This document shows positions 2,864 to 48,785 of a stretch of DNA of 50,557 nucleotides, one piece after another (the stretch's first letter is position 1; every line of letters begins with the position of its first letter). The stretch lies in the NCBI GenBank assembly GCA_018303265.1, contig JAGVYN010000012.1:1-50557 (forward strand). Reading direction: 5' to 3'. The notes under the pieces were generated by a model. It was not told the origin of the DNA and searched no databases. It saw nothing but the letters and a program-made list of their open reading frames with translations. This DNA is from Candidatus Woesearchaeota archaeon. GTDB taxonomy: Archaea; Nanobdellota; Nanobdellia; Woesearchaeales; GW2011-AR9. Both the position numbers and the translations under genes were made by a program.

Positions 2864-2865
2864 AC

Positions 2866-32984: not shown

Positions 32985-33624
32985 ATGAGGAGAAAGGGCA
33001 TCTTATTCATTCTGCTGCTTTTTGTACTCTTGAGTTGTCATTTTGTTATTGCAGATGGTTCTGCACTTCTTTTCTCACCGCTTACTCCAATGGTGATAAA
33101 ATCTCAATCAAATATTCTTGTACAAACAATATTTCCTTCAGCGTGGTACCTAGGTGATAAAATCTCAATCAAATATTCTTGTACAAACAATATTTCCTTC
33201 AGCGTGGTACCTACGCGGACAAGAAATGATGGTATCAGAAATTATAGGGGGTGGTAGTTTTCAATTGCGAGTGGAAACAGGAGAAACAATAAATCCTCCC
33301 TCTCAAAAAAAAGATCTTTTCCAATCTGAAGAAGAGGAAGAGAGGCCACCGGTTGAGATTCTCATCACCAAAAAAGGTTTTGTGCCAAAGAATGTAACCG
33401 TCATGGTAAATCAAACGGTCATTTGGAAAAATACCCAAGAAAAATTGGATACGTTAGTGTTAGGCACCCGTGAGATTTATGATATGAAGAGCGGTTATCT
33501 TAAACCTGGCGATACTTTTTCCTGGAGTTTTCCTCAGGCAGGGAAATTTTTTTATGTTGATGGCGTGGTTATTGGACGGGCAGGAACGATAGAAGTGAAA
33601 AAAGACTATAAAAGACGATCTTAA
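32985..33624 (+). pseudogene. secreted cupredoxin-like protein disrupted by a 61-bp tandem duplication (frameshift)
   Basis: Track ORFs 32985..33257 and 33154..33624 share the peptide IKSQSNILVQTIFPSAWYL. Removing one 61-bp copy fuses them in frame into a 192-aa protein with a signal peptide and a beta-sandwich-like C-terminus (VEILITKKGFVPKNVTVMVNQTVIWKN...FSWSFPQAGKFFYVDG...GTIEV). No Cys/His/Met copper ligands are evident. Confidence 0.6.
33092..33213. repeat. perfect 61-bp direct tandem duplication (2 copies)
   Basis: GGTGATAAAATCTCAATCAAATATTCTTGTACAAACAATATTTCCTTCAGCGTGGTACCTA occurs at 33092-33152 and again at 33153-33213. The copies are identical base for base. Confidence 0.95.
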
Positions 33625-33657
33625 GTGAAGATGCCTTTCTTTGCAAGTTTCGCAAGT

Positions 33658-33666
33658 AATTTATAT
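33658..33666 (+). promoter_or_regulatory. TATA-box candidate for gpsA
   Basis: AATTTATAT ends 24 nt before the ATG at 33690. Confidence 0.35.
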
Positions 33667-33689
33667 CAGTTATTTCATTACGAGAAATT

Positions 33690-34634
33690 ATGAACATCAC
33701 CATCCTTGGCGGGGGAAGCTGGGGCAGTGCGCTGGCTATTCATCTCGCAAAAAAGAAACATTCTGTTAAAATATGGGAATTTTTTCCAGAACAAGCACAG
33801 CATATGCAGGAAAAAAGGGAATGCCCGCTTCTGCCTGGTGTCAAGCTTTCTGATAAGATTTTTGTTTCTTCGGACATGAAAACCACGTTAACAAATGCTG
33901 ATGTAATCTTCATTGTTGTTCCTTCCGATAAAGTAGAAGCGGCGATAGAAAAGGCAGCTCCATTCCTGAAAAAAGAACCAATCATACTTTGTTCAAAGGG
34001 ATTTGCTTCAAAGATGCGCTTATTAAGCGACGTCGTTAAGGAACACAGTTCCGGCCCGGTGTATTGCTTGTATGGCCCGACTCATGCGGAAGAAGTTTCG
34101 CGGGGAGTTTTCAGCGGCCTCGTGCTAGCCGGCGGGGAGGGAAAAGAGAAATTAAAGAAGGCCATTGAAAGTTCACTGCTTCGTGTTGATCTAAGCGACG
34201 ATATTGTTGGCGTTCAGGTTGCCGCGGGATTGAAGAATGTTTTAGCGATTTTTATTGGAATTTTGAGCGGTGCAGGTTTCGGGGACAATACTTCTGCGTA
34301 TGTCCTTACGCGAGGCTTGCAGGAAATAAAGACCGTGGGAGTTAAATGGGGGGGGAAAACTGACACTTTTTACGGACTGGCAGGTATTGGAGATATCATT
34401 GTCACCTGTGAAAGCAAGCATTCACGCAACAGACATATCGGGGAACAGGTTGGAAAAGGCCGGAAGCTTGCAGACGTCCTTGCGGAGATGAAGATGGTTG
34501 CGGAAGGCGTCACCACCGTAAAGATGGTTCCGTCATTGCAAGAGAAATTTCATCTGCCATTACCGGTGATGATGTCTGTGTATGCTATCATGTTTGAAGG
34601 GTTGTCTGTACAGAAGGCGCTGGAAAGGATTTAA
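33690..34634 (+). CDS. gpsA: NAD(P)H-dependent sn-glycerol-3-phosphate dehydrogenase (bacterial GpsA type)
   Basis: ITILGGGSWGSALAIHLA (Rossmann), GPTHAEEV, DIVGVQVAAGLKNVLAIFIGI and GLAGIGDIIVTCESKHSRNRHIGEQVGKG align motif for motif with E. coli GpsA. Confidence 0.85.
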   Translation: MNITILGGGSWGSALAIHLAKKKHSVKIWEFFPEQAQHMQEKRECPLLPGVKLSDKIFVSSDMKTTLTNADVIFIVVPSDKVEAAIEKAAPFLKKEPIILCSKGFASKMRLLSDVVKEHSSGPVYCLYGPTHAEEVSRGVFSGLVLAGGEGKEKLKKAIESSLLRVDLSDDIVGVQVAAGLKNVLAIFIGILSGAGFGDNTSAYVLTRGLQEIKTVGVKWGGKTDTFYGLAGIGDIIVTCESKHSRNRHIGEQVGKGRKLADVLAEMKMVAEGVTTVKMVPSLQEKFHLPLPVMMSVYAIMFEGLSVQKALERI

Positions 34635-34671
34635 TGTGCGGAAAGATGTATGATAATTATGAGAAGCACTT

Positions 34672-34908
34672 CTATTTCGACTTCGCGATAGCTTCTTCTA
34701 TTTTCTGTTCATGAAAGCCAACGATGATCTTGCCGTCAATATCGATGACAGGAACAGCCAGCTGTCCTGATTTGGCAAGCATTTCATCACTATACTCATC
34801 TTCTTCAGTTACATCCAGCTCCTGAAAGGCATACTTTTTTTTCTTAAGCCATTCTTTCAGTTTCACGCACCATGAACACGTTGGCGTGGTATAAATCTTA
34901 ATTTCCAT
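34672..34908 (-). CDS. glutaredoxin-like (NrdH/YruB-type) small redox protein
   Basis: MEIKIYTTPTCSWCVKLKEWLKKKKYAFQELDV has a CxxC motif in a thioredoxin-fold context, and VPVIDIDGKIIVGF follows. I take the ATG at 34908, which has GAGG 8 nt upstream, over the GTG at 34920. Confidence 0.75.
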   Translation of the reverse strand: MEIKIYTTPTCSWCVKLKEWLKKKKYAFQELDVTEEDEYSDEMLAKSGQLAVPVIDIDGKIIVGFHEQKIEEAIAKSK

Positions 34909-34957
34909 GATATGCCTCACAATTATTATTTTTTAAATACCCCGTCGCTTGGGTTTT

Positions 34958-35701
34958 TTATTTTATTCTATTTTTCGTTACGGATAAATCATCGTGGTTA
35001 ATTGTCACAATCTCTCCTTGCTCAATCGGTTCCCAGAGAGCGCCGGGAACTGTCGGCAGCACTTCCGAACTAATGATCACTTGGTCCGTTGTTCTTCCGA
35101 TCTGCATCTGGTAATATTGGGGGAAAAGATTTTTCCTCACGGCAACAAAAGAACGATGCGGCGTGGAGAGGATAACATTTGTTCCTCGTAATTTGTGATA
35201 CCTTTTGAAATTTGTCTGAATTGCCTGTACAGCGTCATCTCTCTTCAAATCGGTAAGAATAGAGTAGAATAACTTTTCTGAATCTGTCTTTCCTTGCGGT
35301 GTGAACTTGGACGAATATTTAATTTCATCTTCAATAAATCCGTTATGGCAGAACACACAGCTCCCTACCCCTTCTTTTTCTGCAATAAATGGATGTGTGT
35401 TCGGGAGGGAAGTCTTGCTGCCAATTTTTTTCCGTGCATGAAGAATGGCTATGTTCGTTTTAATGTTTCGGAAGGAGTCTACTTTTGGATCTTCATAGAT
35501 AGCCATGGTTGATTTTTCAATAACCCATTTATCAGCAGAGTTTCGATAGGCAATGCCCCAGCCATCAGCATGCGACCAACTTCCTTTCCCTTTTTCTTTA
35601 TTTAATTCGTGACGGCTGTTTTGATCACTTGCCATAAGTATAATTCCATCTAGTAATTTATTGATATTTACATTTCCTACAGCGATAAGCATTCGACACA
35701 T
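34958..35701 (-). CDS. class II (Ntn) glutamine amidotransferase-like amidohydrolase, EgtC/YafJ type (paralog A)
   Basis: Cys2 nucleophile (MCRMLIAVG), DGWGIAY, ILHARKK...NTHPF, CHNGFI, KTDSEKLF and IISSEVL. Confidence 0.75.
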   Translation of the reverse strand: MCRMLIAVGNVNINKLLDGIILMASDQNSRHELNKEKGKGSWSHADGWGIAYRNSADKWVIEKSTMAIYEDPKVDSFRNIKTNIAILHARKKIGSKTSLPNTHPFIAEKEGVGSCVFCHNGFIEDEIKYSSKFTPQGKTDSEKLFYSILTDLKRDDAVQAIQTNFKRYHKLRGTNVILSTPHRSFVAVRKNLFPQYYQMQIGRTTDQVIISSEVLPTVPGALWEPIEQGEIVTINHDDLSVTKNRIK

Positions 35702-35767
35702 GGAAACAACCTTTGCTAGGTAATATTTAATAGTTGCGTCTTTCTTTAAATAATATCTCTTTAGAAA

Positions 35768-36982
35768 CTAGGCAGCATGGCGAAGCCGTTCCACTGCCTC
35801 TTGTTGTTTATATCTGATAAAGCGATTTGCTGTTTTCAACGCTTCTGGCTTATAGCGGCCTTCTTCTTTGGCAGAGCAACCCTGCATCTGCAAATGCGCG
35901 GTAAGCTGCGTGGAAGTATTCTCTCCCGAATCGATCATAGCCTCCAATGGTTTTAAGTAGTGTGCATCTTGGCGGTCAAGTTGGCAGCCGGCAAATTCTA
36001 CAATCTGGCCTAAATAATCTCGTATCCTTTCGTCTTCAAGACCGGACTTTATTTGTAGTTCTGATAAAGACTGCAGTGTCTTCCAATTAGGGAGCACTAC
36101 AATTCGACCATGAAAGAGATAATCATCATCTTTTCGTGCAATTGTTACAGGGATGTTCTGATCTAGTATCCTGTCATTAAATCCTTGGATCAATGCTGCT
36201 ATGCCCATGAGTATATCCGCTGGGGCAGAGTCATACACACGCAATTCAAACGTGCCGCTGCCGATTTCCGGCCGATGGCGGATGTCAGCATAGCCCGTAT
36301 TGTCTAGTTTAAACTTATGAGCGAATTCCGCAGCTTCAAGTCCTGCGTCAACATACGCATTTTTCCAGTTCTCCCAGCGTCGTACATCCCTCGCAACAAG
36401 TTCATCTTTGGATCCGATATATCCCCGCTCTTCAGGGATTTTAGCAAAAACGTCCTTCTGAAGAGCTTTTTGACGCTGGCAGTTGATGCCATTTTTTCCT
36501 TCGTAATTAATTGTTGACGTAGAACTGAAGGCGGCGCTTACTAACGCCAAAGCTGTCAGAGCGTTAAATTGCTCGACAAGTCGCGGTTGATTAGCGTCAA
36601 TGTGGCAATGAATCCCTGCCCATGGAAAGAGTTTCTCCGGTGTTCCCTCGCCAAAGATCGCCCTATAAGCGCTGGCGCGGGATTTTTCGTGAAGATTAAT
36701 TCTTCCCCGTTCTCCTGCGCCATTTTCACTCGCAGGAAGACCAAATACACCGTACTCCGCACATAAGTCAGCAAGAGCATCTTCCTGTCGTAAATACTCA
36801 TCTGTCAAATCTTTAATTCTGCGGTGTGGTTGTGAATTCCATTCAAATTGCGCTTGTGATCCTTCATCAACATATTTAGCTTCTTTGTAGGGATGTTTTA
36901 CAAGAAGAACGCCTTCGTTGGTGATTGATCCGTCTGGCTTGCACGTCAAACGTTCGTATTCAACACCTATTTTAGATCCCAT
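35768..36982 (-). CDS. carboxylate-amine ligase, glutamate-cysteine ligase family 2 (YbdK/EgtA-like) (ligase A)
   Basis: IGVEYERL, QAQFEWNSQP, AGIHCHID and YADIRHRPEIGSGTFELRVYDS match the ordered GCS2 motifs. I take the ATG at 36982 (GAGGGG 5 nt upstream). The track ORF extends to 37027. Confidence 0.7.
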   Translation of the reverse strand: MGSKIGVEYERLTCKPDGSITNEGVLLVKHPYKEAKYVDEGSQAQFEWNSQPHRRIKDLTDEYLRQEDALADLCAEYGVFGLPASENGAGERGRINLHEKSRASAYRAIFGEGTPEKLFPWAGIHCHIDANQPRLVEQFNALTALALVSAAFSSTSTINYEGKNGINCQRQKALQKDVFAKIPEERGYIGSKDELVARDVRRWENWKNAYVDAGLEAAEFAHKFKLDNTGYADIRHRPEIGSGTFELRVYDSAPADILMGIAALIQGFNDRILDQNIPVTIARKDDDYLFHGRIVVLPNWKTLQSLSELQIKSGLEDERIRDYLGQIVEFAGCQLDRQDAHYLKPLEAMIDSGENTSTQLTAHLQMQGCSAKEEGRYKPEALKTANRFIRYKQQEAVERLRHAA

Positions 36983-37228
36983 CTTTCCCCTCTTTTTTTT
37001 CGTGGATAAAATAATAATTCTCCACATTTGGATACTAGGTGGGATTCAAGCAAGATATATAAATGTTTTCTTTTTTATCGCTTTTTATCAGGAAAATATA
37101 CTCTAATGGTTTAAAATAACCTAAAAATAGCACATAGCATAGCTTTTTCTGAGATTTTTTCACAGTAAATTTCAAAAATAAGTAAAAAATTAGCTTTTAA
37201 TAAAAAAATAAACTAAAAATGTGGCCAT

Positions 37229-37879
37229 TTACAAGTTATTTTTGGGAAAAAGAATCATCTTATGATTTCGATACTTTTTGGTTTCCAATGATTCGAACGC
37301 TTCTTTTAATACCGGTTCGGCAACGGAAATGTTTCCTTGAAGGGGATCGATGAGCTGAAAGTGCCCTTGCCTTTCGGAATATTCATACACTACCAGGTAA
37401 TTTGAGGTGTTCCGTTTCTCGTTGCGGAGGGGTTTGGCGTTTAACCGCAGGAGAAGAATGTTTTTTTTAAGTTCATTATGTATGTCGCGGAAGGAAACGT
37501 CTTTTTCCTGAATATCTATATTTTTTTCCTGCGCTTCCGCTAAATACATATCGGAAGAGAAACCAGCATTATCGATGTCTTCCTTGGTATAGCGGTAAAA
37601 TCGGTAATCCGGAAAATCGTACTCTTTTTTCTCGACGATAACCTGCGGTTTGAGACCGCAGCGTTGCGCATAGAGAGCAAGAGCGTAAATGGAAGATCCT
37701 CTGGTTGGAAGTGTGGCCGTCTTTTTCCAAATGTCAAATTCGTTCTCTCTCGTTAAATTGATTTCTGGTTTGGAATGATGAAGAATAGCGAGCAATGACG
37801 AAGCTGCGGTCGTGAATGATGTTGTTTGCAAGTAAGGGATCATGTAATCACGCATGTATCTTTGTTTCAACTGGAACAA
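37229..37879 (-). CDS. peptidase C39-like (papain-fold) domain protein, catalytic Cys and His apparently substituted
   Basis: YLQTTSFTTAASSLLAILHH aligns by eye to the C39 motif Q-x5-C-G-A-A-x-L-A-M-I-L with Thr in place of Cys. NYLVVYEY...FQLIDP aligns to H-Y-x-V-V...DP with Asn in place of His. Alternative starts lie at 37855 and 37843. Confidence 0.45.
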   Translation of the reverse strand: MFQLKQRYMRDYMIPYLQTTSFTTAASSLLAILHHSKPEINLTRENEFDIWKKTATLPTRGSSIYALALYAQRCGLKPQVIVEKKEYDFPDYRFYRYTKEDIDNAGFSSDMYLAEAQEKNIDIQEKDVSFRDIHNELKKNILLLRLNAKPLRNEKRNTSNYLVVYEYSERQGHFQLIDPLQGNISVAEPVLKEAFESLETKKYRNHKMILFPKNNL

Positions 37880-38606
37880 GTTGTTGTGGTTTCATAATTG
37901 AAACACTCCGCTCTTTGTTGTTTATTACCGCAACTTCCCCTTGCGAGAGCGGTTTCCATCTCATTTTTTTCATCGCCGGAATTTTTTCTGAACTGATGAT
38001 GATGGCGTCTTTGCTTTTGCCGATGTGCATCGTGAAATAGAGGGGGTAGTTGTTCTCTCGCACGGCGACGATCGTTTGTTGAGGCGAGGCGAGAATGATA
38101 TTTGTTCCGGTGAGTTTGGTAAATTGCAGAAGAGTATTTCTCACGCTTTTTGCGGGATTTTTTGTATCCAGGTGAGTAAGAATGTTATAGAACAGCCGTT
38201 CTGAATCGGTCTCTCCTTTTGGCTTATATTTTCGGTCATAGTTAATTTTTTCGCTGATAAGCCCATTGTGGGAAAAGACAAATCTTCCTTCATGAAAAGG
38301 GTGGGTATTGCGCAGGGAAACACCACCGCTGTCCATCCCTCTGGCATGGATGAGTATGACGGAAGAAGTCACCTTGCGCAGAGAATTTATTTTTCGATCA
38401 TCATAGATTGCTTTCGTTGATTTGACAATTTTCCATGAACTTTTTTGCAAATAGGCAACTCCCCACCCATCCGAATGTTTCCAGCTGCCGAGCCCTTTCT
38501 TCTGATTAAGTTCATGGTGGGTTGTTTGGTCTTGCGCCATGAGTATCATGCTGTCAAGAAGAGTATTGGGATCAATATCCCCTAGAGCAATAAGCATTCG
38601 ACACAT
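37848..38606 (-). CDS. class II (Ntn) glutamine amidotransferase-like amidohydrolase, EgtC/YafJ type (paralog B)
   Basis: MCRMLIALG (start placed at 38606 so that Cys is residue 2), DGWGVAY, LIHARG...NTHPF, SHNGLI, ETDSERLF and IISSEKI. 34 of the first 53 residues are identical to paralog A by hand alignment. Confidence 0.75.
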   Translation of the reverse strand: MCRMLIALGDIDPNTLLDSMILMAQDQTTHHELNQKKGLGSWKHSDGWGVAYLQKSSWKIVKSTKAIYDDRKINSLRKVTSSVILIHARGMDSGGVSLRNTHPFHEGRFVFSHNGLISEKINYDRKYKPKGETDSERLFYNILTHLDTKNPAKSVRNTLLQFTKLTGTNIILASPQQTIVAVRENNYPLYFTMHIGKSKDAIIISSEKIPAMKKMRWKPLSQGEVAVINNKERSVSIMKPQQLVPVETKIHA

Positions 38607-38675
38607 TTGTAGTACCTTCAATTTTGCGCACTTTTCGCCTTGGAATATCTCTTGACTATTTTCTGTTGCGCCGGT

Positions 38676-40226
38676 TTAAGGTTTATAAGTAAATGGCTCT
38701 AACACAGCATGCAATGTTGCCGGTAAGATTTTTTCTCCTTTTTCCATGTTCGGCTGTTCCGTGTACGCAATCTTTCTCATGAGTTGGGCAGGCGTCGGCT
38801 CAGGTTGAATATTCTTAAAATAACCTTTTCCCTGGTACAACACGCCAGCTTTAGTTAGAACGGGATTGATAATTTCCTTTATATCTGTTTCGGTATGCCC
38901 GTATCTTTTAAGAACATCCACGGAAAGTTTTCCTAAGTATTCAAACAAGTCGGGAAACGATTTAATGGCGACAGGAGTTCCATTACGATATGGCCAAATG
39001 CATTTTTTATAAGAATGAGAATTATGAAGAGAACTTTCAGTCATGTTTCTCTCAACATATTGCGATGCTAATGGTTGAAGTGAATCTTTTTGCATTTCTT
39101 CAACTATTCCCTGGAGCATTGCCATCTGTGTCAAATTAAAAGCGGCCATTTCTTCCGCATTGCGCGGCATTTCATTCATTCGCAATTCAATGCCTATTCC
39201 TTTTGCATCCATGACATCTTTATATTTCAACTTGACGAACGGCCAACTATTTACTTCAGGAAAATCTTTTTCTTGACCAGCGACATCTTCCTCAGTGATA
39301 ACAATGTGCCCGTCGGCGGCGATGGTACCAAAATATTGAGCAATGGGAGAAGGAACACGAATTTTTATCAAAGCTTCATACATCTCTTGGTTAAACCATT
39401 GCGGGTTTTCGGTGTTTTCAATCATGGGTTCCAATGCTCGCCAACGGTTGGGTCGTCCTCGTTCAAAATCCTCTTGGGTAAATCCATACGTGGCAGGAGG
39501 ATTTAGATGTATTCTCGCGCTATCGTACATGGTTAGCTTTCCTTCGACTAATGGCGAGGAGGCGCTTACAGCAAACAGCAATGGTCCAAGTACGTACGCT
39601 GCATTATAATAAAGCTGCGTTGCGGAATGGGGAACTTTGATTGTCGTTTGGGTATTGGTAGCAAAACCAGCCCAGATATTGTTACGATAGGTTTGCGCGC
39701 TTCCATCAACAAAAGGGATTATTGCGTCTTGCGCTAAAGGAGAAAGCATCTCGCCGAAGGCATCAAATCGAGGACTCTTAAATAAGAATTTTGTTGCTTC
39801 TTCATTGTAAAGAGGATAACCTCCCATAAGAAGAGCAGTGGCGCCAAATTCCTGCGCGGCGTAGTGCAAAGGATTCAAGATATCTTTAATTCCACAGATA
39901 ACTTCGTCCAAAGAATCGTGTAGTCCAAATAATTTTTTTGGATTTGTTTTGACCTCGGCCTGGAAATTTACTTTCTCCCCGGTGATTACTCCTTTCCCTA
40001 GCACTTTTTCTAATTCTTCAAATATCGGAGCGGGGTTATTATGAGCATCAACTAATGTCGTTTCTATTTCTATACCTGCGTCTAAAATTTTTGGATCTTC
40101 ATGTTCTATTGGATAAATTTTTTGAAATCTATCGACAACAGATTGAATATATCGCTGGTTTATTTCGGAGGCAAACGCAAGTAGTTCAGAACGGTTCAGA
40201 ATCCTCCCTCGAATTTGTTCACCCAT
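38676..40226 (-). CDS. divergent glutamate-cysteine-ligase-superfamily carboxylate-amine ligase (ligase B)
   Basis: AGIEIETTLVD (E-x-E), NFQAEVKTNP and GIGIELRMNEMP follow the GCS/GS-like order. NTQTTIKVP sits where ligase A has HCH. 516 aa. Confidence 0.5.
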   Translation of the reverse strand: MGEQIRGRILNRSELLAFASEINQRYIQSVVDRFQKIYPIEHEDPKILDAGIEIETTLVDAHNNPAPIFEELEKVLGKGVITGEKVNFQAEVKTNPKKLFGLHDSLDEVICGIKDILNPLHYAAQEFGATALLMGGYPLYNEEATKFLFKSPRFDAFGEMLSPLAQDAIIPFVDGSAQTYRNNIWAGFATNTQTTIKVPHSATQLYYNAAYVLGPLLFAVSASSPLVEGKLTMYDSARIHLNPPATYGFTQEDFERGRPNRWRALEPMIENTENPQWFNQEMYEALIKIRVPSPIAQYFGTIAADGHIVITEEDVAGQEKDFPEVNSWPFVKLKYKDVMDAKGIGIELRMNEMPRNAEEMAAFNLTQMAMLQGIVEEMQKDSLQPLASQYVERNMTESSLHNSHSYKKCIWPYRNGTPVAIKSFPDLFEYLGKLSVDVLKRYGHTETDIKEIINPVLTKAGVLYQGKGYFKNIQPEPTPAQLMRKIAYTEQPNMEKGEKILPATLHAVLEPFTYKP

Positions 40227-40253
40227 CTTTTCTTATTTTGCCGATGAGGAGAA

Positions 40254-40262
40254 TTATTTAAA
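40254..40262 (-). promoter_or_regulatory. TATA-box candidate for ligase B operon
   Basis: TTTAAATAA (minus-strand sense) lies about 28 nt upstream of the ATG at 40226. Confidence 0.35.
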
Positions 40263-40526
40263 CCTTTCTTTTATATTAAAAAATTACCCTAAAATAGAAA
40301 AAGGTGCCATATTTTAATCTCTTTTAAAAAAAGAGCGTTATTTTTGTATGTGTTTTTATATGTGTTTAATATATTTTTATGAAAATTATGATTTTTCTGG
40401 TGATGGCTTGGAAAAATTAAATCTACAAAAAAAGTATGTGCTACGTATGAAAAACCAACAACTTTTTAAATAAACTCTTGTCTTAAGCACAAAATAAAGA
40501 ATAAATACGGTAATTCCTACATCAAA

Positions 40527-41231
40527 ATGTCTAAATCAACTACGAAAAAAGTAAGCAGGATCAAAACCAGGAAGAAAGTATGGTTTAAGATTTTTGCTCC
40601 ACAGGTTTTTGGGAACAAAGAAATTGGTGAAACATATCTTCCGGCAGCAGAAAATGCTCTGGGAAGATTGCTGAAGATTAGTTTGAAAGATATCACTGGC
40701 AATGTTAAAGACCAGAACGCGTATATTGGTTTTAAAATTGCAAAAGCGGAGGGTTCTGCTTTGCGAACTGAAGTGATAAGTTACCAGCTGACTCCTGCAT
40801 CCGTCAAAAGACTGGTTCGAAAAAATACGGCGCGCTTAGATGATTATTTTACATTTACAACAAAAGACAAAAAAAACGTTATCGTAAAAACCCTTCTTAT
40901 CACCTTAAACATAAGCAAGCGTTCCACAGAAGCCCGCTTGCGTAAAACATTGCAAGACTTACTTAGAGCAGAGATAAATACGGAAGATTTCACTACATTT
41001 TTAAGCAATGTTGTTACCAACAAAGTACAAGCTATTCTTAGAAAGAAACTTAATAAGATATATCCTCTTAAAGAATTGGCCATTCGTGTTGCTGTGCTAC
41101 AGCAGGGTACGGGAACGTCTAAAGAAGATGTTCTTGAAACGGCTCCTCAAGAAGAGCCTCGTGCAGAAGCAGTGCCCTTGGTTGAAGAAGCAAGCGTTGA
41201 AGAAACTGACGTTGAGGAAGCAGCACTTTAA
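40527..41231 (+). CDS. rps3ae: 30S ribosomal protein eS1 (S3Ae)
   Basis: KVWFKIFAPQVFGNKEIGETYLPAAENALGRLLKISLKDITGN. Acidic C-terminal tail. Confidence 0.9.
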   Translation: MSKSTTKKVSRIKTRKKVWFKIFAPQVFGNKEIGETYLPAAENALGRLLKISLKDITGNVKDQNAYIGFKIAKAEGSALRTEVISYQLTPASVKRLVRKNTARLDDYFTFTTKDKKNVIVKTLLITLNISKRSTEARLRKTLQDLLRAEINTEDFTTFLSNVVTNKVQAILRKKLNKIYPLKELAIRVAVLQQGTGTSKEDVLETAPQEEPRAEAVPLVEEASVEETDVEEAAL

Positions 41232-41250
41232 GCTTTTTTGTTCTATTTCC

Positions 41251-41850
41251 ATGAGATTTTTAACATTTACAGACTTGCACGAAGATAAAAGTACTCTGCA
41301 AGAGTTAGTCACGAGAGCAACAAAAGAAGATGTTGATTTTATTGTATGCTGCGGCGATATTTCTACATTGGGAAGAGGATTGCGAAACGTCCTCACCAAA
41401 TTTGCTGCCACGGGAAAACGATTTTATGTTATACCTGGGAATCATGAAGAAGCGGGAACGATGCTTGATGATGCCGTTGCCGATTTTCCCGGATGCATCA
41501 ATTTTCATACCAAGGCAATTAAAGTTGGTGATTATATTTTTCTGGGATATGGCGGCGGCGGGTTTTCTTTTGAAGATCCTGCCTTCCGTAAGATAGCGCG
41601 GGAGTGGTACGGCAAATACAAAGAAAAAAAGATCGTGCTGGTAACCCATCAGCCTCCATTCGGCACCAAACTTGATCTGCTGGGAGAGCGGCATGTAGGA
41701 AATAAAGATTTCCGAAAATTTATCGAAAGGGTTAAGCCTAAATTAGCGATTTCCGGCCATTTGCATGAAACAGTAGGAAGTGTTGATGCCATCGGCGAAA
41801 CAAAACTTGTAAATCCCGGCTGGGATGGAATGATTATTGAGTTGAACTGA
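41251..41850 (+). CDS. calcineurin-like metallophosphoesterase
   Basis: FTDLHED (DxH), CCGDIS (GD), PGNHEE (GNHE), VTHQPP and SGHLHE (GHxH). The ATG at 41251 is used because the upstream part of the track ORF overlaps eS1 out of frame. Confidence 0.8.
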   Translation: MRFLTFTDLHEDKSTLQELVTRATKEDVDFIVCCGDISTLGRGLRNVLTKFAATGKRFYVIPGNHEEAGTMLDDAVADFPGCINFHTKAIKVGDYIFLGYGGGGFSFEDPAFRKIAREWYGKYKEKKIVLVTHQPPFGTKLDLLGERHVGNKDFRKFIERVKPKLAISGHLHETVGSVDAIGETKLVNPGWDGMIIELN

Positions 41851-41920
41851 TTCGTCGTGCTGGTACTTTTAATTCCCATTTTTTTTCAATTTTAACACAT
41901 TTCAATTTTAACACCAATAC

Positions 41921-41929
41921 TTTTAAATA
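41921..41929 (+). promoter_or_regulatory. TATA-box candidate
   Basis: TTTTAAATA ends 24 nt before the ATG at 41953. Confidence 0.35.
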
Positions 41930-41952
41930 TAATTTTGATTTCCACAAAGAAC

Positions 41953-42750
41953 ATGAAACTTGCAACAAGACTCTTTTTTCTTTTCATGGTGCTTTTCATT
42001 GTGTCCTGTTCTTTTCCATCAGAAGAAAAAATAGAAACTAAACCTCAAGAGACTGTTCTTCCATCGTCAGAAATTGCGGAGAGTATTGCCGAGAGCAATG
42101 CGTCGGAAACCACTGAAATCCCGCTTCAAGAGACTCTGCCAGAACAGCAGCTGGATCCTGAAATAGAGGAACTTATTGCGAAAGGGCGAAATGCTGCAAA
42201 TTATAACTACTTTTTTTCCTCTCTTGTTCGAGATAATTATGGAATTTATACTGAAACATCGTATACTGTTTTTGTTAAAGAGGAAAAAACAAAAAAAGTA
42301 TATCTGAATCCTAAAAAATTACGGGGAGATATTTTTTATAATGAGATTTACTTGGATAATACGAAAAAGACAGCCATCGGTATTTGCACGAAAATAGGAA
42401 TTCTCTGTGAAAAGATTTTTGACAAAGCGTATGCTGTGGACTATCTTTCTGAGAAAATTGATGTGACTCCGGCGGAACTCCTTAAGGGTGTCGGTCTTAA
42501 TGCTGCGAAAGTTGGCGAAGAAGTTATTGACAATAGAAAAACCACCATCATTGAGTATACCAACGCAAAAGGACAGAAAGAAAGATTATCTCTCGACAAT
42601 CATTTTGGCTTGCCTCTGAAACAGATTATCTATGAAACTTCTGATGATCAGGAAATTATCTTGGAAACGAATAGATTTAGCAAATTTTCTGTGGGTAATG
42701 TTCTCACAAAAGAAGTCACCTTGCCCGAAAAATATCAAATTGTTGAGTAG
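41953..42750 (+). CDS. putative secreted lipoprotein
   Basis: MKLATRLFFLFMVLFIVSCSF is a signal peptide with a lipobox-like IVSC. An acidic linker follows. I prefer the ATG at 41953 to the TTG at 41935 because of the TATA spacing. Confidence 0.5.
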   Translation: MKLATRLFFLFMVLFIVSCSFPSEEKIETKPQETVLPSSEIAESIAESNASETTEIPLQETLPEQQLDPEIEELIAKGRNAANYNYFFSSLVRDNYGIYTETSYTVFVKEEKTKKVYLNPKKLRGDIFYNEIYLDNTKKTAIGICTKIGILCEKIFDKAYAVDYLSEKIDVTPAELLKGVGLNAAKVGEEVIDNRKTTIIEYTNAKGQKERLSLDNHFGLPLKQIIYETSDDQEIILETNRFSKFSVGNVLTKEVTLPEKYQIVE

Positions 42751-43084
42751 TTCTTGAATAAAAAAGTGGCCTATTTATTCTAAAATCCTTCCTAAAATTC
42801 CAGTTTTAGCTGACTGTTTTAACTGTGGGATACAGGCATAGCATTTTAAGGCTCATTAAGAAAAAGCTAACACTTTTTCTTCAACTCCGTTTCTCGTAGG
42901 GTTGCATAGTGAATTTGATGCGAGTATGAGCTCATATACCTTTTTCGCTAGAAAACGCATATTAGGGGTAAAATGGAGAGTGTGAGCTCTGAGATAAAAA
43001 GATTTTTCCATAGCATTGGTAGTGTTAGTGCAGAGATAGTAAGACACTACATAGATGTCTCAACCAGTTGGGAGAGAACAAAAC

Positions 43085-43111
43085 AAAAGAAGCTCCAATA
43101 GAGCTTCTTTT
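43085..43111. terminator. perfect 11-bp stem / 5-nt loop hairpin flanked by A/T runs (bidirectional terminator-like)
   Basis: AAAAGAAGCTC-CAATA-GAGCTTCTTTT lies immediately 3' of the minus-strand gene that ends at 43121. T-runs follow on both strands. Confidence 0.45.
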
Positions 43112-43120
43112 TCTAAAAAC

Positions 43121-44356
43121 TTATTCACCAAAATACATATTTCTTAATAATTTCAATGTATTATATTCATCAATTGATAATTTATCATCTTTAACCATCT
43201 TCCAACTTTTAGTTGCATATTTATTCATACAACTAAAAGCATTTGGAAGATTGAACTTGACCACAGATTGATTAAATCTTACCAATTCTTGGTTAAGTTC
43301 ATCTCTAATTCCTGTTTTACTTAAATCAACATTTCTTTCTTCAAGAGTTCTTCCCATTTGAACATATAATCTTGTAAGACCTTTTGTTTGTTGAAATAGT
43401 TGAGAGGGGTCAATAATCAAATCTCCTTGAATATTATGTTTAAGGAAGTATGCTCTTAATACTTTATTATGAACTCCATTAAACATTTCAGATTGATTTC
43501 CATCATCATTTTGCCATCTTAATTTCTTTTTATCAGAACCAACTAAAATACTATGAGTTACAATTCTTGTTGGTACGTCTTCTTGATTTAAGTAACACAA
43601 TGTGTAGTAGTTGAATTTTTTAACAACATCTCCACTTATTGAAGTTCTAATATCATATTCTCTATCCTTATTAATCAATGCGGGAAACATCATTGTAACA
43701 AATCTTGGGTCTAATTTAAAACCATAAATGCTCGTTGTAAATTCTCTATTCTTTTCTAATATTAAATCATATTCACTAGGAAGATTATCAATAAAATCTT
43801 CAAGTCTTTTCTTTGCACCAGATGGGAAAAATTCAATTCCTGCAATTTTTCTTTCAATATCTTCCCTATTAATATTTTTAAACATAGTTTCTCTTTGATG
43901 ATAGGTGGTATCTCTACCACAACTTCTACAAGATGAAATAGATGGGTCAGAACCAAATATATTGCCACAAGTAATACATTCATTAATATTTGTATTACCA
44001 ATATTAAATGTTTCTTGATATGATGTTCTCGCCAACTTTTCTAATTGTTCTTGAATTTGGTCATCTCTTAAACTACAATCAAAATCAAGATAATGTTGTT
44101 TCATCACTTCTTCTGCTCTTTTTATCTTTTCTGAAGTATATTGTGCAACATTTTCAGGATTTAATTCAAAACCATACTCTCTCATTTGTTTAACAAGTGG
44201 TTCTCCATTAATATTCCACAAAAATGGTGTATGAACATTAATTCCTGCAAATTTTCTTGCTTTTGAATAAAAATCTACAAGTGTAAGGTCATATACATTT
44301 CCCACACTCAAATTTCTTTTAATTTGAGTTGGAGCAATCAACACTAATTCTTTCAT
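43121..44356 (-). CDS. methionyl-tRNA-synthetase-like class I aaRS paralog lacking HIGH and KMSKS signatures
   Basis: Collinear with the MetRS catalytic core. PTQIKRNLSVGNVYDLTLVDFYSKARKFAGINV sits where PYANGxxHLGHxxxxxxADVxxRYxRxxGxxV would be. Zinc knuckle CITCGNIFGSDPSISSCRSCG. FVTMMFPALI sits where FHxxxWPAML would be. VTHSILVGSDKKKLRWQNDDGN sits where VHGxxxxxGxKMSKSxGN would be. LRAYFL sits where LRYYL would be. Confidence 0.5.
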   Translation of the reverse strand: MKELVLIAPTQIKRNLSVGNVYDLTLVDFYSKARKFAGINVHTPFLWNINGEPLVKQMREYGFELNPENVAQYTSEKIKRAEEVMKQHYLDFDCSLRDDQIQEQLEKLARTSYQETFNIGNTNINECITCGNIFGSDPSISSCRSCGRDTTYHQRETMFKNINREDIERKIAGIEFFPSGAKKRLEDFIDNLPSEYDLILEKNREFTTSIYGFKLDPRFVTMMFPALINKDREYDIRTSISGDVVKKFNYYTLCYLNQEDVPTRIVTHSILVGSDKKKLRWQNDDGNQSEMFNGVHNKVLRAYFLKHNIQGDLIIDPSQLFQQTKGLTRLYVQMGRTLEERNVDLSKTGIRDELNQELVRFNQSVVKFNLPNAFSCMNKYATKSWKMVKDDKLSIDEYNTLKLLRNMYFGE

Positions 44357-44360
44357 TTAT

Positions 44361-44609
44361 CTATTCTTCATAATTTATATAATCTAAAAATATCTTTTTA
44401 TCAAGATATGTCAAAAACTCATAAGCAACTTCAACATCTTCTAATGTAATATTTTCAGTTCTTTCCACTTTTATATGTAAAAAAATTTTAGGATTAATTG
44501 GTGGTTCAAATACATCATAAAATGTTTGCAATGCTGCCCTTTTATCTTTTGGATAAATTCCTCTTGATGCAAGTGCATATAAAGAACCATAGATACACCA
44601 TTTCATCAT
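44361..44609 (-). CDS. hypothetical protein (82 aa), co-oriented with and 4 nt upstream of the MetRS-like gene
   Basis: It shares the very AT-rich composition of its neighbour. No motif recognised. Confidence 0.4.
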   Translation of the reverse strand: MMKWCIYGSLYALASRGIYPKDKRAALQTFYDVFEPPINPKIFLHIKVERTENITLEDVEVAYEFLTYLDKKIFLDYINYEE

Positions 44610-44921
44610 AAGTATTTTATTTTCCTTATCATTAATATACTGCTAAAGTTTTAGGATTTACAATATTCTTGAAGAAATGGAGAAGAGATGTTAGATAGAA
44701 TCAATAAATATTTGGAGCGTTTGTTAAAAGTAACTTTTGTTACGACTGCCGAAGCTTCTCAATTGTCTGCTACCACCGTGGAAGAATGGAGCGCTTTGGG
44801 GGACTACCTGGATTTGACTCCTGAAGGAACCAAAAAATTATGAATCTGCGCAAACAAAATTTATTTAACGGGGTGAAAAATAAAGCCATAAAAAAGGAAT
44901 ACGAACGGTCGAGGCCGGAAT

Positions 44922-45713
44922 ATGAAGTATTGGAAAAAAAAGCATTCCACTTTGAATCGCATTATATTTAGGATTAATCTTTTGAAAAATAGCATAAAAG
45001 ATTTTTCGGTTTTTAAGAAAGTTCCAGCTTTTATAATAAGACAGTTTGGCCCAAATTTAGAAAGAGAATATGGAAAACTGACTATTTTACCGGATTTTTC
45101 AAAAAAGTTTGTATATGTGCCGCTTGGTTTTCAGCCGGAGCGCACTACCAGTCCGCAAGGGGATATGTTTGTTGATCAGATCTTAATGATTGAAACTATT
45201 TCCGCGTCTTTGCCTAAAGATTGGATTATTTATGTAAAAGAACATCCTTCTCAGTGGTGGTTAAGAAGTGGTATTCGTTATTCTTGCGCTCGTTATAAGG
45301 GGTATTATCGCCGAATTGCCAAAATAAAAAATGTTAAATTAGTTCCTATCACTACTAACACTTATAACTTAATTGATAAAGCGCAGGCAGTGGCTGTGGC
45401 GACGGGTACCGCTGGTTGGGAAGCGCTTCTCCGTTCAAAACCAACTTTAGCTTTCGGTTATCCATGGTACCGAGATTGCCCGGAATTGTTTAGGATAAAT
45501 AGCGTTGAATTATGTAAGTCCGCCCTTGATAAAATTAATAATGGTTGGAAAGTAAATCAACAAAAAATGATTTATTATTTGAAGTGTTTTGATAATGTTG
45601 CTTTACACGGCTCCCCGGAAGTTTTTGTCGCCAAGAAATCAAAGGTCAGTGAACAAGAAACTAGAGATAATATGTTCAAGGCCTTCGTGACAGAAGTGGA
45701 GAATTTACCTTAA
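44922..45713 (+). CDS. capsule/polysaccharide biosynthesis protein-like (KpsS/KpsC-type domain), possibly N-terminally truncated
   Basis: FVYVPLGFQPERTTSPQGDMFVDQ...YVKEHPSQW...VATGTAGWEALL resembles the C-terminal half of Capsule_synth-type enzymes. The reading frame is closed by a stop 30 nt upstream of the ATG. Confidence 0.4.
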   Translation: MKYWKKKHSTLNRIIFRINLLKNSIKDFSVFKKVPAFIIRQFGPNLEREYGKLTILPDFSKKFVYVPLGFQPERTTSPQGDMFVDQILMIETISASLPKDWIIYVKEHPSQWWLRSGIRYSCARYKGYYRRIAKIKNVKLVPITTNTYNLIDKAQAVAVATGTAGWEALLRSKPTLAFGYPWYRDCPELFRINSVELCKSALDKINNGWKVNQQKMIYYLKCFDNVALHGSPEVFVAKKSKVSEQETRDNMFKAFVTEVENLP

Positions 45714-45722
45714 AGATATATT

Positions 45723-46100
45723 ATGATTGCGAATAAAATTGATGAGAGTGTCGGGGTTGATATTGAGGATATCGGCAGGTTTAGGAAACTTGACCAAAAA
45801 AATAGTGGGGTTTTTTTGAAAAAGGTTTACACCAAAAACGAATTGGACTATTGTTTCTGGAAGGCCGTTCCGGCTCAGCATCTGGCTGTTAGGTTTGCTG
45901 GCAAAGAAGCTGTTTTAAAGGCGTTAAGCGGTTTAGGTTTGTCTCCTGTTGATTATAATACGATAGAAATTTTTAATAATGACAGAGGGGCGCCGCAAGT
46001 TAGATTTTGTGGGCATAAAAATTTTAAGAAGTTGGGTGTAAAGATAAGTTTGTCCCATTGTCGAGACAAGGCATTAGCTTTCGTTGTTATAAAAAAGTAA
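45723..46100 (+). CDS. acpS: holo-ACP synthase (AcpS-type 4'-phosphopantetheinyl transferase)
   Basis: VGVDIEDIGRF, FAGKEAVLKAL and KISLSH, in 125 aa. Confidence 0.8.
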   Translation: MIANKIDESVGVDIEDIGRFRKLDQKNSGVFLKKVYTKNELDYCFWKAVPAQHLAVRFAGKEAVLKALSGLGLSPVDYNTIEIFNNDRGAPQVRFCGHKNFKKLGVKISLSHCRDKALAFVVIKK

Positions 46101-46102
46101 TT

Positions 46103-46300
46103 ATGATAAGTAAAAAAGAAATAAAAAAAGAAATAAAAAAATTCTTCGCTACCGATTTAGATTCTTTCGCTTATCTACAATTGGTCTCTGACTTGGAAAA
46201 AAAATTTGAGGTAGAATTGACTATGGCGGAAGCGTTGACGGCCGATAGTGTGGAAAAATTCGCTAAAATTATCTGTCGCAAATTAAAGAAAAAATCATGA
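46103..46300 (+). CDS. acyl carrier protein
   Basis: 65 aa with DLDSFAYLQLVSDLEKKFEVEL (DSx phosphopantetheine-attachment motif). The ATG at 46103 lies 3 nt after the acpS stop. Confidence 0.7.
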   Translation: MISKKEIKKEIKKFFATDLDSFAYLQLVSDLEKKFEVELTMAEALTADSVEKFAKIICRKLKKKS

Positions 46301-47793: not shown

Positions 47794-48780
47794 GGTCAAT
47801 TTATATTCAAAAACCAGGAACAATCAAGATCGTTGATGGTTTGAAGTTGCCGTCATTGCGGCGAGGCGAGGCCTTACTCAAGGTAAATTATATTGGTATC
47901 TGTGGTTCGGATGTCAGTATTTACTTGGGTGAAATGCCGATGGTTGTAGAGTTTCCAAGAATTATCGGGCATGAAATATCGGCAGAAATAATGAAAATAG
48001 GAAAGAACAAACAAGGATTCAGGGTGGGGAATTTAGTAACCGTTCTGCCTTATTTTAATTGTAAAAATTTTGGTCAGCGGCTTTGTCCGGCTTGCGCCGA
48101 AGGCCGCGGCTAGCGATTATATTGCGGTGCCCATTGAAAACCTAGTTTCTGGTGGCGATCTTTCCGCCAAGATGCTTACTTTAGCAGAGCCGTTCGCTGT
48201 CAGTTATCACGCTGTTAAGAAAGCTCGGCCGCGTGTTGGCGACAATGTTTTGATAATAGGTGCTGGGCCGATTGGTGTGGCGGCGATGACTGTCGTTAAA
48301 TTTTTTGGAGCTAAAGTTTATATTATTGATGTCAATAGACGACGATTGAAGTTAGCAAAACAACTTGGCGCAGACGGCGTTTTTAATCCCAACACCGATG
48401 ATTTTGAAAAGTTTGTTAAAAAAGCTACCTTTGGTAAGGGAATGGATTTATGCGTGGAGGCCTCAGGCAATTCGTTGGCAGCTATCAATTGTGTCAAAGC
48501 TCTTCGCCAGCCCAATCGGACGGTGGTGGCCATTGCTCATTCTAAAAAGCCACTCAATAATTTTTTCCAATCGGAATTGGTCAAACGCGAAGGTGTCTAT
48601 CGGGGCTCAAGAAACAGCGTTTTGTCCGATTTTCTGGAAGTAGTGAAAATTCTATCAAGGCGACCGGACATTGAAAAAATGATAACCAAGGTATATTCTG
48701 TTGCCGAAGCGCCGCAGGCATTCAAAGATTTAACAAATAGTGATGGCAAATTACATTTGAAATCACTATTAAAATTTTAA
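47790..48780 (+). pseudogene. zinc-dependent medium-chain dehydrogenase (Tdh/sorbitol-DH-like), internally deleted and frameshifted
   Basis: The N-terminal ORF carries GICGSDVSIYLG...PRIIGHEISAEI and CPACAEGRG, then a TAG at 48111. The +1-frame ORF resumes at DYIAVP...LAEPFAVSYHAV...LIIGAGPIGV. The expected 15-20 residues between these (fourth structural-zinc Cys to GGFA) are absent. Confidence 0.6.
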
Positions 48781-48785
48781 AGATT

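Follow-up and report, generated by a model that had tools for sequence, protein, structure and literature searches.

A six-gene cluster of ligases and amidohydrolases

The stretch of DNA analyzed here, referred to as the window, consists of positions 1-50,557 of contig JAGVYN010000012.1 from a Candidatus Woesearchaeota archaeon (assembly GCA_018303265.1). On its minus strand, at positions 34672-40226, it carries a cluster of six genes that encode two carboxylate-amine ligases of the GCS superfamily (LigB and LigA), two Ntn amidohydrolases (NtnB and NtnA), a C39-like pseudo-peptidase and a glutaredoxin-like protein (Table 1), which together may constitute a pathway for adding and removing a gamma-glutamyl group. 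A first-pass annotation, made from the sequence alone, had described this region as a duplicated ligase-amidohydrolase module of six open reading frames (ORFs), and all six ORFs are present where it had placed them.

Table 1. Genes and intergenic features of the cluster in the window.
Feature	Coordinates	Strand	Description
LigB	38676..40226	-	516 aa, GCS-superfamily carboxylate-amine ligase, Gln (QxT) metal-site variant
NtnB	37848..38606	-	252 aa, class II GATase-like (GATase_4, YafJ/EgtC-type) N-terminal-Cys amidohydrolase
C39-like pseudo-peptidase (DUF3335)	37229..37855	-	~204-216 aa; start ambiguous: 37843, 37855 or 37879
AT-rich intergenic region	36983..37228	-	246 nt; probable boundary of two transcription units
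LigA	35768..36982	-	404 aa, divergent GCS2/YbdK-like carboxylate-amine ligase
NtnA	34958..35701	-	247 aa, class II GATase-like Ntn amidohydrolase
Glutaredoxin-like	34672..34908	-	78 aa from ATG, CSWC motif, YruB/NrdH-like
Divergent intergenic region, LigB / S3Ae ribosomal protein gene	40227..40526	.	left boundary of conserved slot

The ORF of NtnB extends from 37848 to 38621, and its true start is Met6 at 38606 (MCRMLIALG), which leaves a gap of 69 nt from LigB. LigA likewise starts at an internal methionine, Met16 of its ORF (36982), with GAGGGG upstream and in agreement with the 404-aa cluster representative P0004; the gap between LigA and NtnA is 66 nt. The start of the glutaredoxin gene is probably the ATG at 34908, the other candidate being 34920, and the C39-like gene abuts or overlaps the NtnB stop codon. 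The intergenic region between the C39-like gene and LigA contains oligo-T runs after the C39-like gene, then a TATA-like box, and the GAGGGG before LigA resembles a Shine-Dalgarno sequence. Because this 246-nt gap holds oligo-T runs followed by a TATA-like box, the genes are probably organized in two transcription units, LigB-NtnB-C39 and LigA-NtnA-glutaredoxin. Another TATA-like element lies approximately 30 nt upstream of the LigB ATG, in the divergent intergenic region.

The lengths of the two ligase-Ntn spacers, to which the first-pass annotation had drawn attention, are correct as it gave them, but they are not a feature of the family, because ligase-Ntn distances in relatives differ. The spacers were also considered as a shared element and rejected as such, since they have no sequence in common beyond the Ntn start codons; the similarity of their lengths is a coincidence. 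No small ORF in either intergenic region of Table 1 was kept beyond the same species, in line with the earlier observation that neither gap holds a convincing small precursor ORF. An Rfam scan of positions 34000-41000 gave zero matches, and none of the PADLOC models, which represent known anti-phage defense systems, matched any of the six proteins at E<=0.01.

An independent Joint Genome Institute metagenome contig (locus L082, from a near-identical strain) is colinear with positions 33583-44638 of the window at 97.6% identity, and the arrangement is therefore not an assembly artifact or chimera. The 246-nt gap has a counterpart in L082 only (98.8% identical).

LigA and LigB are remotely related members of the GCS superfamily

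Profiles, structural matches of LigA and motif residues all place the two large proteins among the carboxylate-amine ligases of the GCS superfamily, as had been proposed from their motifs. As a single sequence, LigA scored 18.3 bits against Pfam GCS2 (PF04107), below the gathering threshold of 21, and single-protein sequence searches of the Protein Data Bank (PDB) returned no match for either LigA or LigB. An AlphaFold2 model of LigA (pLDDT 75, pTM 0.81) was compared with known structures using Foldseek. The best match was YbdK (1r8g, 5.9e-8), along with 1tt4, plant GCL, GshF and E. coli GshA, and the top 24 PDB matches were all GCS-family chains, with E from 5.9e-8 to 2.5e-4. The E values for YbdK and the plant, GshF and E. 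coli GCLs ranged from 6e-8 to 1e-5, whereas those for glutamine synthetase, Dop and PafA were only at least 1.6e-3 (Dop and PafA, 2.5e-3 to 4.6e-3). The identity between LigA and its best structural matches is 12-16%. A profile of 24 LigA sequences identified YbdK-like and plant GCL chains in the PDB (1tt4, 1.4e-7; YbdK, 6.5e-7; plant GCL, 2.8e-6; range to 2.2e-5). In the model, LigA has the GS-like saddle fold of GCS enzymes and is YbdK/GCS2-like.

The GCS2/YbdK motif set that had been read in LigA (GhExE, HxH and R..E.R) is present. Invariant residues among 24 homologs are E8, E10, E40, E47, R102, S156, R170, R235, E246 and R248, the ExE segment being IGVEYE, and H125 and H127 are near-invariant (>=90% conserved). 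LigB, for its part, passed the cut-offs of two Pfam families, GCS2 (37.5 bits, cut-off 21) and GCS (34.1 bits, cut-off 25). Its invariant residues across 5 homologs are E53/E55 (motif GIEIE), E91, R153, Q193/T195, S224 and R238. In profile alignments, the TQTTxKVP...SASSP segment of LigB aligns with yeast and plant GCL and with YbdK, and its Gln193 pairs with Gln268 of yeast GCL, a position that we take to be a metal ligand. LigB had been noted to lack the HxH motif of LigA. The motif is indeed absent, but this is not a defect, as LigB has the Gln state of plant and yeast GCL. Thus, the catalytic residue sets of both ligases are intact. The family placement of all six proteins of the cluster is grounded in computation. 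For LigB, whose AlphaFold2 model from a 3-sequence alignment was unusable at a pLDDT of 33, a GS-like fold may be expected from its remote homology to LigA.

The description of the two ligases as deeply divergent was accurate, in that no pairwise similarity between them was detected. An earlier hhalign comparison of small LigA and LigB alignments was not significant (probability 1.6%), while family profiles of 24 and 5 sequences aligned over 169 columns with a probability of 68% and an E value of 4.7e-5. The aligned columns cover the catalytic half of the proteins, including ExE, E, R, HxH/QxT and S..R. Against the NCBIfam equivalogs for GCL and EgtA, LigA and LigB scored 13-25 bits, with cut-offs of 176-437. 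Both families are small: homolog clusters among 5.8 billion numbered 3 for LigB and 7 for LigA, and the named public copies are labeled hypothetical. A metagenome scan with the 3-sequence LigB alignment retrieved nothing beyond the same species and a CG10 relative that was already known.

The Ntn amidohydrolases retain the catalytic residues of class II enzymes, and NtnB is mosaic

Profiles and the catalytic set show that both Ntn proteins are class II (GATase_4, EgtC/YafJ-like) Cys-nucleophile amidohydrolases, as had been predicted. The Pfam GATase_4 scores were 76.6 bits for NtnB (1.9e-21) and 66.4 bits for NtnA (2.5e-18), with a threshold of 23. Both proteins retain the MCR(M) start, HAR, HNG and TDSE; Cys1 directly follows the initiator Met, and R90, N120, G121 and D140 are invariant in 19 sequences, so that the catalytic sets (Cys1/Arg/Asn-Gly/Asp) are intact. 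In the class II enzymes PurF and GlmS, these residues hold a gamma-glutamyl moiety whose alpha-amino and alpha-carboxylate groups are free. The nearest PDB chains are the YafJ-like 1te5 and 3mdn, and EgtC is the best NCBIfam model for both proteins, at 59.3 bits for NtnB (3.5e-16) and 39.1 bits for NtnA versus a cut-off of 218.65.

The earlier hand count of 34 identical residues among the first 53 of the two Ntn proteins was exact. Overall, NtnA and NtnB are 47% identical, while NtnA is 55-60% identical to the Ntn proteins of other species. At E<=1e-10, NtnA has 248 homolog clusters, and those with a named source are all labeled Woesearchaeota, Nanoarchaeota or Nanoarchaeia. A rough neighbor-joining tree grouped NtnA with the glutaredoxin-adjacent Ntn of other species, and placed NtnB, like the first Ntn of locus L018, on a deep branch in a separate part of the tree. 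NtnA is the ortholog of the glutaredoxin-adjacent Ntn that is found throughout the lineage. The closest non-archaeal relatives of the Ntn proteins (35-38% identity) are from candidate division KSB1 and Cytophagia metagenome-assembled genomes (MAGs; L060-L065), where they adjoin unrelated enzymes secreted by the type IX secretion system, with no ligase nearby.

Comparison with strain L082 revealed that NtnB alone departs from the overall identity, dropping to 84%. Codons 1-68 and 225-252 encode an identical protein in the two strains, with one synonymous difference, whereas codons 69-224 (window 37927-38402; L082 8824-9291) differ by 24% at the DNA level, with a dS of 1.3 and a dN/dS of 0.15. 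This divergent core includes substrate-pocket residues. The ends of NtnB and the genes for LigB, the C39-like protein, LigA, NtnA and the glutaredoxin are 98-100% identical between strains, and both NtnB alleles recur, the L082 allele in L006 and the window allele in L007. Gene conversion from NtnA was ruled out as the origin of the mosaic, the identity to NtnA being just 72%. The likeliest explanation is that the NtnB core represents a recombination tract from a divergent lineage.

The other five genes, which could be compared with L082 directly, contain few and mostly synonymous differences (pN/pS 0-0.21), including 0.06 for LigA, 0.16 for the C39-like gene, 4 synonymous and 0 nonsynonymous differences in NtnA, and 4 synonymous and 3 nonsynonymous differences in LigB. 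The cluster genes are under purifying selection, both in these five genes and, from its dN/dS, in the divergent core of NtnB.

The C39-like protein has lost its catalytic dyad, and the last gene encodes a glutaredoxin

The C39-like protein matched Pfam DUF3335 (1e-13, 51.7 bits, cut-off 25), and a single-protein PDB search gave one insignificant match (E 0.42). It is catalytically degenerate, as had been suspected: Thr replaces the catalytic Cys and Asn replaces the His. Among 21 cluster-linked copies, His was lost in all 21 and Cys in 17, while the TSNY motif, the oxyanion Gln and the DP motif stay conserved. In contrast, distant DUF3335 relatives and the true C39 of L059 retain Q...C and H...D. 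These results show that the protein has lost its catalytic dyad. Since this papain-like protein is dead yet conserved, the pattern suggests a binding or regulatory role. A precedent is HlyB, in which an inactive C39-like domain binds substrate without cutting it. An exhaustive search of 1.84 billion representatives yielded just 60 relatives at E<=1e-3. L059 (5121-5600) encodes a 159-aa C39 peptidase, with Cys and His intact, where other loci carry the dead DUF3335-like protein. DUF3335 has been reported to occur frequently in fusions with GNAT-type domains, which might be peptide ligases or acetylases (PMC10318531).

The last gene was correctly identified as a member of the glutaredoxin family (Pfam Glutaredoxin, 1.9e-17, 63.6 bits versus 22.9), with the motifs CSWC and VPV (cis-Pro) present. 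The TIGR02196 model for the YruB family gave 84.8 bits, just below its cut-off of 88.55. The active sites of 41 orthologs are mostly CxxC, with CxxS in 10 of the 41, GQWC in one and DPWS, with no Cys whatever in the protein, in two. The CxxS forms hint at a monothiol mechanism, for which glutaredoxins need a small-thiol co-substrate. Glutaredoxins with variant sites were seen in L013 (8112-8360), L053 (5101-5349), L010, L017, L030, L035, L037, L041, L042, L050 and L066.

The cluster occupies a conserved and variable slot in Woesearchaeota and Nanoarchaeota

Related loci were found by look-ups anchored on either ligase or on Ntn, and by an Ntn-alignment scan of species-representative genomes, and their neighbors were mapped with custom hidden Markov models and clustering. 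This gave 49 non-redundant loci in Woesearchaeota/Nanoarchaeota MAGs, in which the genes occupy a slot bordered on one side by the divergent S3Ae/metallophosphoesterase genes and on the other by GpsA, which is convergent. Most loci were retrieved via Ntn, so the frequencies are conditional on the presence of Ntn. A glutaredoxin was found in 40 of the 49 loci, any GCS-type ligase in 28 (LigA type in 25, LigB type in 4) and the dead C39-like protein in 21. Both ligase types occur together in only one of the 49, the window itself (its near-identical strain L082 is not among the 49), and two Ntn genes in three (the window, L018 and L037).

The pairing of ligase and Ntn recurred in related genomes when gene neighborhoods were compared, and both ligases fell within the GCS superfamily, as the first-pass annotation had anticipated. 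The ligase is followed directly by Ntn in 22 of 29 cases, at a distance of 6 nt or less or with overlap in 17 of the 22, and every ligase-anchored look-up with downstream sequence had Ntn immediately downstream. Thus, ligase and Ntn show operon-like coupling, and the cluster is conserved across the lineage. A ligase-Ntn pair does not form the core, however: among the 36 loci with a visible left boundary, 11 have neither ligase nor C39, and 10 contain essentially Ntn and glutaredoxin alone. The conserved core is Ntn and glutaredoxin.

Similarly, there are two ligase-Ntn units in the window, as the term duplicated module implied, but they did not arise by tandem duplication, because the ligases belong to two remotely related families and NtnA is nearer to the Ntn of other species than to NtnB. 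The only DNA repeat between the two modules is 43 nt long with a 77% match and lies inside the Ntn genes, so the modules are not the product of a recent duplication. The window is a composite of two modules. LigA and LigB take the same position in different genomes, a pattern suggestive of non-orthologous displacement in situ.

Other genes in the slot vary among the relatives. Several encode ATP-grasp enzymes: a glutathione-synthase-like one directly after LigA in L040 (8456-9331, 8.9e-37), a GshF/cyanophycin-type one after LigA in L056 (4326-5345, ~1e-52) and in L052 (6897-9385) a Ddl-like ligase, together with a class I GATase and a glutamate racemase that scored above its NCBIfam cut-off. 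In all, five kinds of ATP-grasp ligase occur across the slots; the ATP-grasp matches of an unclassified 337/341-aa protein in L021/L022 are weak. Genes related to thiol or sulfur metabolism include the ATP-grasps of L040 and L056, GSP_synth-like proteins in L018 and L044, a BshA equivalog in L017 (3752-4924, 306.8 versus an NCBIfam cut-off of 273.7) and a CuyB-like racemase in L021 (349-1092). In L045 (8204-8953, 10934-12616), the slot holds a TauE sulfite exporter, and Ntn is immediately followed by a gene for a DsbA-like Thioredoxin_4 protein. We also found M55 D-aminopeptidase and Asp/Glu-type racemases (L021, L022 and L046), one or more D-aminoacylase-like amidohydrolases (L046, 5272-9003), octopine dehydrogenase with amidohydrolases (L045 and L046), a KamA-family 2,3-aminomutase with two AlaDh_N proteins (L016, 4288-7362) and, in approximately 10 loci, a divergently oriented GH3 (NagZ-like) gene pair that lies between Ntn and the glutaredoxin gene. 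Of the genes that look biosynthetic, the last in the slot is always Ntn. The common theme is the making and breaking of small-molecule amide bonds, with a recurring thiol flavor.

Several other proteins of the slot had no Pfam or NCBIfam match. These include ~135-aa proteins directly upstream of Ntn in ligase-less loci (L028 6869-7285, L036, L038 and L039), a 162/182-aa protein upstream of C39 in the CG10 genome (L001 216-764) and a 404-aa protein that heads the L015 cluster (2747-3961). These proteins are not remnants of ligases. Many European Nucleotide Archive "binchicken" MAGs titled "uncultured Methanosarcinales archaeon" show Woesearchaeota/Nanoarchaeota synteny at this slot (L017, L019, L023, L025, L027, L028 and others), and these titles look like placeholder or wrong taxonomy.

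A possible gamma-glutamyl thiol pathway

The cluster is most likely a glutathione- or gamma-Glu-Cys-like low-molecular-weight thiol pathway in Woesearchaeota/Nanoarchaeota (DPANN). More specifically, we give an even chance to its being a two-operon cluster that makes and removes a gamma-glutamyl amide on a thiol (cysteine-type) small molecule. LigA and LigB, as non-orthologous GCS-type ligases, would use ATP to activate the gamma-carboxylate of glutamate and couple it to an amine, preferably that of cysteine or of a cysteine derivative. The YafJ/EgtC/Dug3-type Ntn encoded behind each ligase would use its N-terminal Cys to re-hydrolyze the gamma-glutamyl amide, either for turnover and salvage of cysteine and glutamate or for deprotection once the cysteine moiety has been used, as in the logic of EgtA and EgtC. 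The glutaredoxin-like protein would then serve as a thiol-disulfide partner, and the DUF3335 protein would be a subunit that binds or regulates without catalytic activity. What we infer from these assignments is which substrates are used (Glu, Cys or another thiol), in which direction the flux runs and whether the proteins form a physical complex.

This interpretation follows from the enzyme classes, the biochemistry of EgtC and Dug3, and the context of the slot, including the frequent glutaredoxin and its CxxS forms; the operon-like coupling of ligase and Ntn and the purifying selection on the cluster genes also speak for it. EgtC takes gamma-Glu off a gamma-Glu-Cys adduct. Yeast Dug3 is a class II amidotransferase (PMC12653102), and the Dug2-Dug3 complex acts on glutathione and transfers the gamma-glutamyl group (PMC6508711). 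The first-pass annotation had offered three readings, namely a low-molecular-weight thiol, protecting-group chemistry on an amine and Pup-like tagging. The thiol gains the most support, because thiol and sulfur genes share the slot in relatives, whereas Pup-like tagging is not supported, as discussed below.

Several observations weigh against the thiol pathway. By their equivalog scores, both ligases are far from all characterized GCLs. The YruB/NrdH-like glutaredoxin may depend on thioredoxin reductase rather than on glutathione, it is without any Cys in two relatives, and the GH3 pair splits it from Ntn in about 10 loci. Synteny extends over the entire region throughout the lineage, so that being adjacent says little by itself about a functional link, and the occurrence of Ntn without a local ligase (11 of 36 loci) and in KSB1 and Cytophagia makes the ligase-Ntn partnership facultative. 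Co-transcription of a synthetase with the hydrolase of its product would be a futile cycle unless there is an intermediate step or regulation, and no tailoring enzyme is encoded in the window. Finally, the glutamate racemase, Ddl-like ligase, M55, GH3, KamA and opine dehydrogenase genes of relatives suggest D-amino-acid, muropeptide or beta-amino-acid chemistry.

Alternatively, a gamma-glutamyl or other acyl group could serve as a carrier or protecting group on a non-thiol amine or small peptide, which we consider unlikely. The slot would then be a hypervariable island for amide-linked metabolites (osmolytes, beta-amino acids, opines or D-amino-acid peptides), in which the ligases attach Glu and Ntn strips it at the end. 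EgtA/EgtC and BtrJ/BtrG of butirosin biosynthesis are precedents for such protection, and the slot contents fit it in varying by species while sharing an amide-bond theme (ATP-grasps, KamA with AlaDh_N, octopine dehydrogenase and racemases), as does the terminal position of Ntn. However, there is no tailoring enzyme between ligation and removal in the window cluster, the commonest partner of Ntn is a thioredoxin-fold protein and several of the accessory genes are thiol- or sulfur-specific. Salvage of gamma-D-glutamyl or D-amino-acid peptides, for example bacterial muropeptides scavenged by a symbiont, is harder to credit, and we attach only a slight probability to it. Here, Ntn would cut the gamma-glutamyl bond, and a useful peptide would be put together again by the ligases, which would accommodate the glutamate racemase, Ddl-like ATP-grasp, class I GATase, M55, racemase, D-aminoacylase-like and GH3 (NagZ-like) genes of relatives. 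None of these D-amino-acid or muropeptide genes is found in the window, however, no part in the recycling of muropeptides is known for GCS-type ligases, and salvage leaves the glutaredoxin, the BshA equivalog and the GshB-like genes unexplained.

The close coupling of ligase and Ntn could instead reflect the two subunits of a glutamine-dependent amidoligase, similar to a split asparagine-synthetase- or GS-like amidotransferase, in which an Ntn glutaminase feeds ammonia (or glutamate) to a GCS-type ligase that amidates a carboxylate. The Ntn proteins retain all residues for glutamine binding and hydrolysis in class II amidotransferases, and a distance of no more than 6 nt or an overlap, as in 17 of 22 cases, is typical of the subunits of one enzyme. 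We nevertheless regard this as quite improbable, though a little less so than salvage: the 11 Ntn genes without a local ligase and the unrelated neighbors in bacteria do not fit it, and two unrelated-looking ligase families and several ATP-grasps would need to dock the same glutaminase. Moreover, the characterized stand-alone GATase_4 proteins, EgtC and Dug3 (PMC6508711), are gamma-glutamyl-X hydrolases and not ammonia donors. Pup-like reversible tagging of proteins or peptides, with PafA-like ligases, Ntn removers and the dead C39 as a recognition module, was the most doubtful of the alternatives and is very improbable. The inactive, substrate-binding C39-like domain of HlyB would be a precedent for the recognition module. 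The carboxylate-amine ligase superfamily also includes PafA and Dop (PMC2588565), which matched the LigA model weakly, but the matches of GCS enzymes were stronger by four to five orders of magnitude, neither gap contains a conserved small ORF, Pup-like or otherwise, and no proteasome or AAA genes lie nearby among the ORFs scanned. In addition, the accessory genes of relatives encode small-molecule enzymes, and the residues of the Ntn pocket imply a gamma-glutamyl group whose alpha-amino and alpha-carboxylate groups are both free rather than the C-terminus of a protein. A long shot, only marginally easier to entertain, would be a Pup-independent archaeal tagging system based on reversible gamma-glutamylation of a peptide or protein, with the dead C39 recognizing the target, the Ntn proteins acting as erasers and the recombining core of NtnB determining target specificity.

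Relationship to known systems

The gamma-glutamyl thiol pathway proposed here would work in the manner of EgtA/EgtC and of glutathione metabolism with its arms for synthesis and breakdown, and it belongs to neither, because equivalog cut-offs were missed widely, EgtB, EgtD and EgtE are absent and the window has no ATP-grasp as a second ligase. As in EgtA/EgtC, a ligase of GCS2 type is accompanied by a stand-alone GATase_4 Ntn, which would take the gamma-glutamyl group off again. In contrast to that system, the cluster scored 14.8 versus a cut-off of 370.8 for EgtA, fell far below the EgtC cut-off given above, and has two ligase families, a dead C39-like protein and a glutaredoxin. The absence of EgtB, EgtD and EgtE that had been reported earlier was confirmed, as scans of the cluster and of 10 flanking ORFs found no such domains. 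With glutathione metabolism (synthesis by GshA/GshB or GshF, breakdown and gamma-glutamyl transfer by the yeast Dug2-Dug3 complex) the cluster shares a GCS-fold ligase, an enzyme of class II amidotransferase type, which in yeast acts on gamma-glutamyl peptides (PMC6508711), and a glutaredoxin partner, and in relatives LigA is immediately followed by an ATP-grasp of glutathione-synthase-like or GshF type. The differences are that the window lacks both an ATP-grasp as second ligase and a partner of the Dug2 or M20 kind, that neither ligase is an ortholog of a GshA class, and that the genes for synthesis and removal are probably co-transcribed.

YbdK of E. coli and the halobacterial GCS2-type gamma-Glu-Cys ligase are also comparable. 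By structure and by profile, LigA comes closest to YbdK, and it has the motif set GhExE, HxH and R..E.R, but LigA has the low identity and sub-threshold Pfam score described above. We know of no link between YbdK and an Ntn gene. Iyer, Burroughs and Aravind reported carboxylate-amine ligases that adjoin gamma-glutamyl-removing enzymes, and predicted that they make glutathione-like peptides rather than tag proteins (PMC2588565). Members of that family, such as C. perfringens CJD_1902, resemble the ligases described here in being GCS2-sized, in adjoining a gamma-glutamyl remover and in having no Pup-like ORF (PMC2588565). Their remover, however, is a class I GATase-like thiol peptidase or AIG2 cyclotransferase, as opposed to the class II Ntn here, and the family is bacterial while this cluster is from DPANN archaea. 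The PafA/Dop/Pup system shares the ligase superfamily and the principle of a ligating and de-ligating pair, but it has Pup, which is lacking here, its remover is the Dop paralog of the ligase instead of an Ntn hydrolase, and its structural match to LigA is much weaker. In comparison with DUF3335 fusions and HlyB, the C39-like protein is stand-alone and is partnered with a GCS-type ligase, not with a GNAT domain or an ABC transporter.

Flanking sequence

Outside the cluster, the GC content falls to 0.33-0.34 at 42-46 kb of the window. Genes at 44922-49598 encode capsule-synthesis-like, AMP-binding, zinc alcohol dehydrogenase-like and aminoglycoside 3-N-acetyltransferase-like proteins, and a 411-aa ORF at 43121-44356 has no Pfam match. 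Positions 42001-49598 may be a surface-polysaccharide or accessory island.

Significance

The logic of adding and then removing a gamma-glutamyl group is already known. What is new here is the class II Ntn partner, the two tiny unannotated ligase families, the conserved pseudo-peptidase and the variable, lineage-wide slot in DPANN archaea; literature searches found no paper that describes these proteins or the cluster. To our knowledge, the small-molecule thiol of DPANN archaea with reduced genomes has not yet been identified, and only EgtC and Dug3 have been characterized in the YafJ-type Ntn group. The locus exemplifies in-place replacement, in which two unrelated-looking GCS ligases, several ATP-grasps and other enzymes are swapped directly upstream of one conserved hydrolase. 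The cluster provides a concrete candidate for a thiol pathway in DPANN archaea and, if the proposal is true, would assign a role to a lineage-wide YafJ-type Ntn amidohydrolase.

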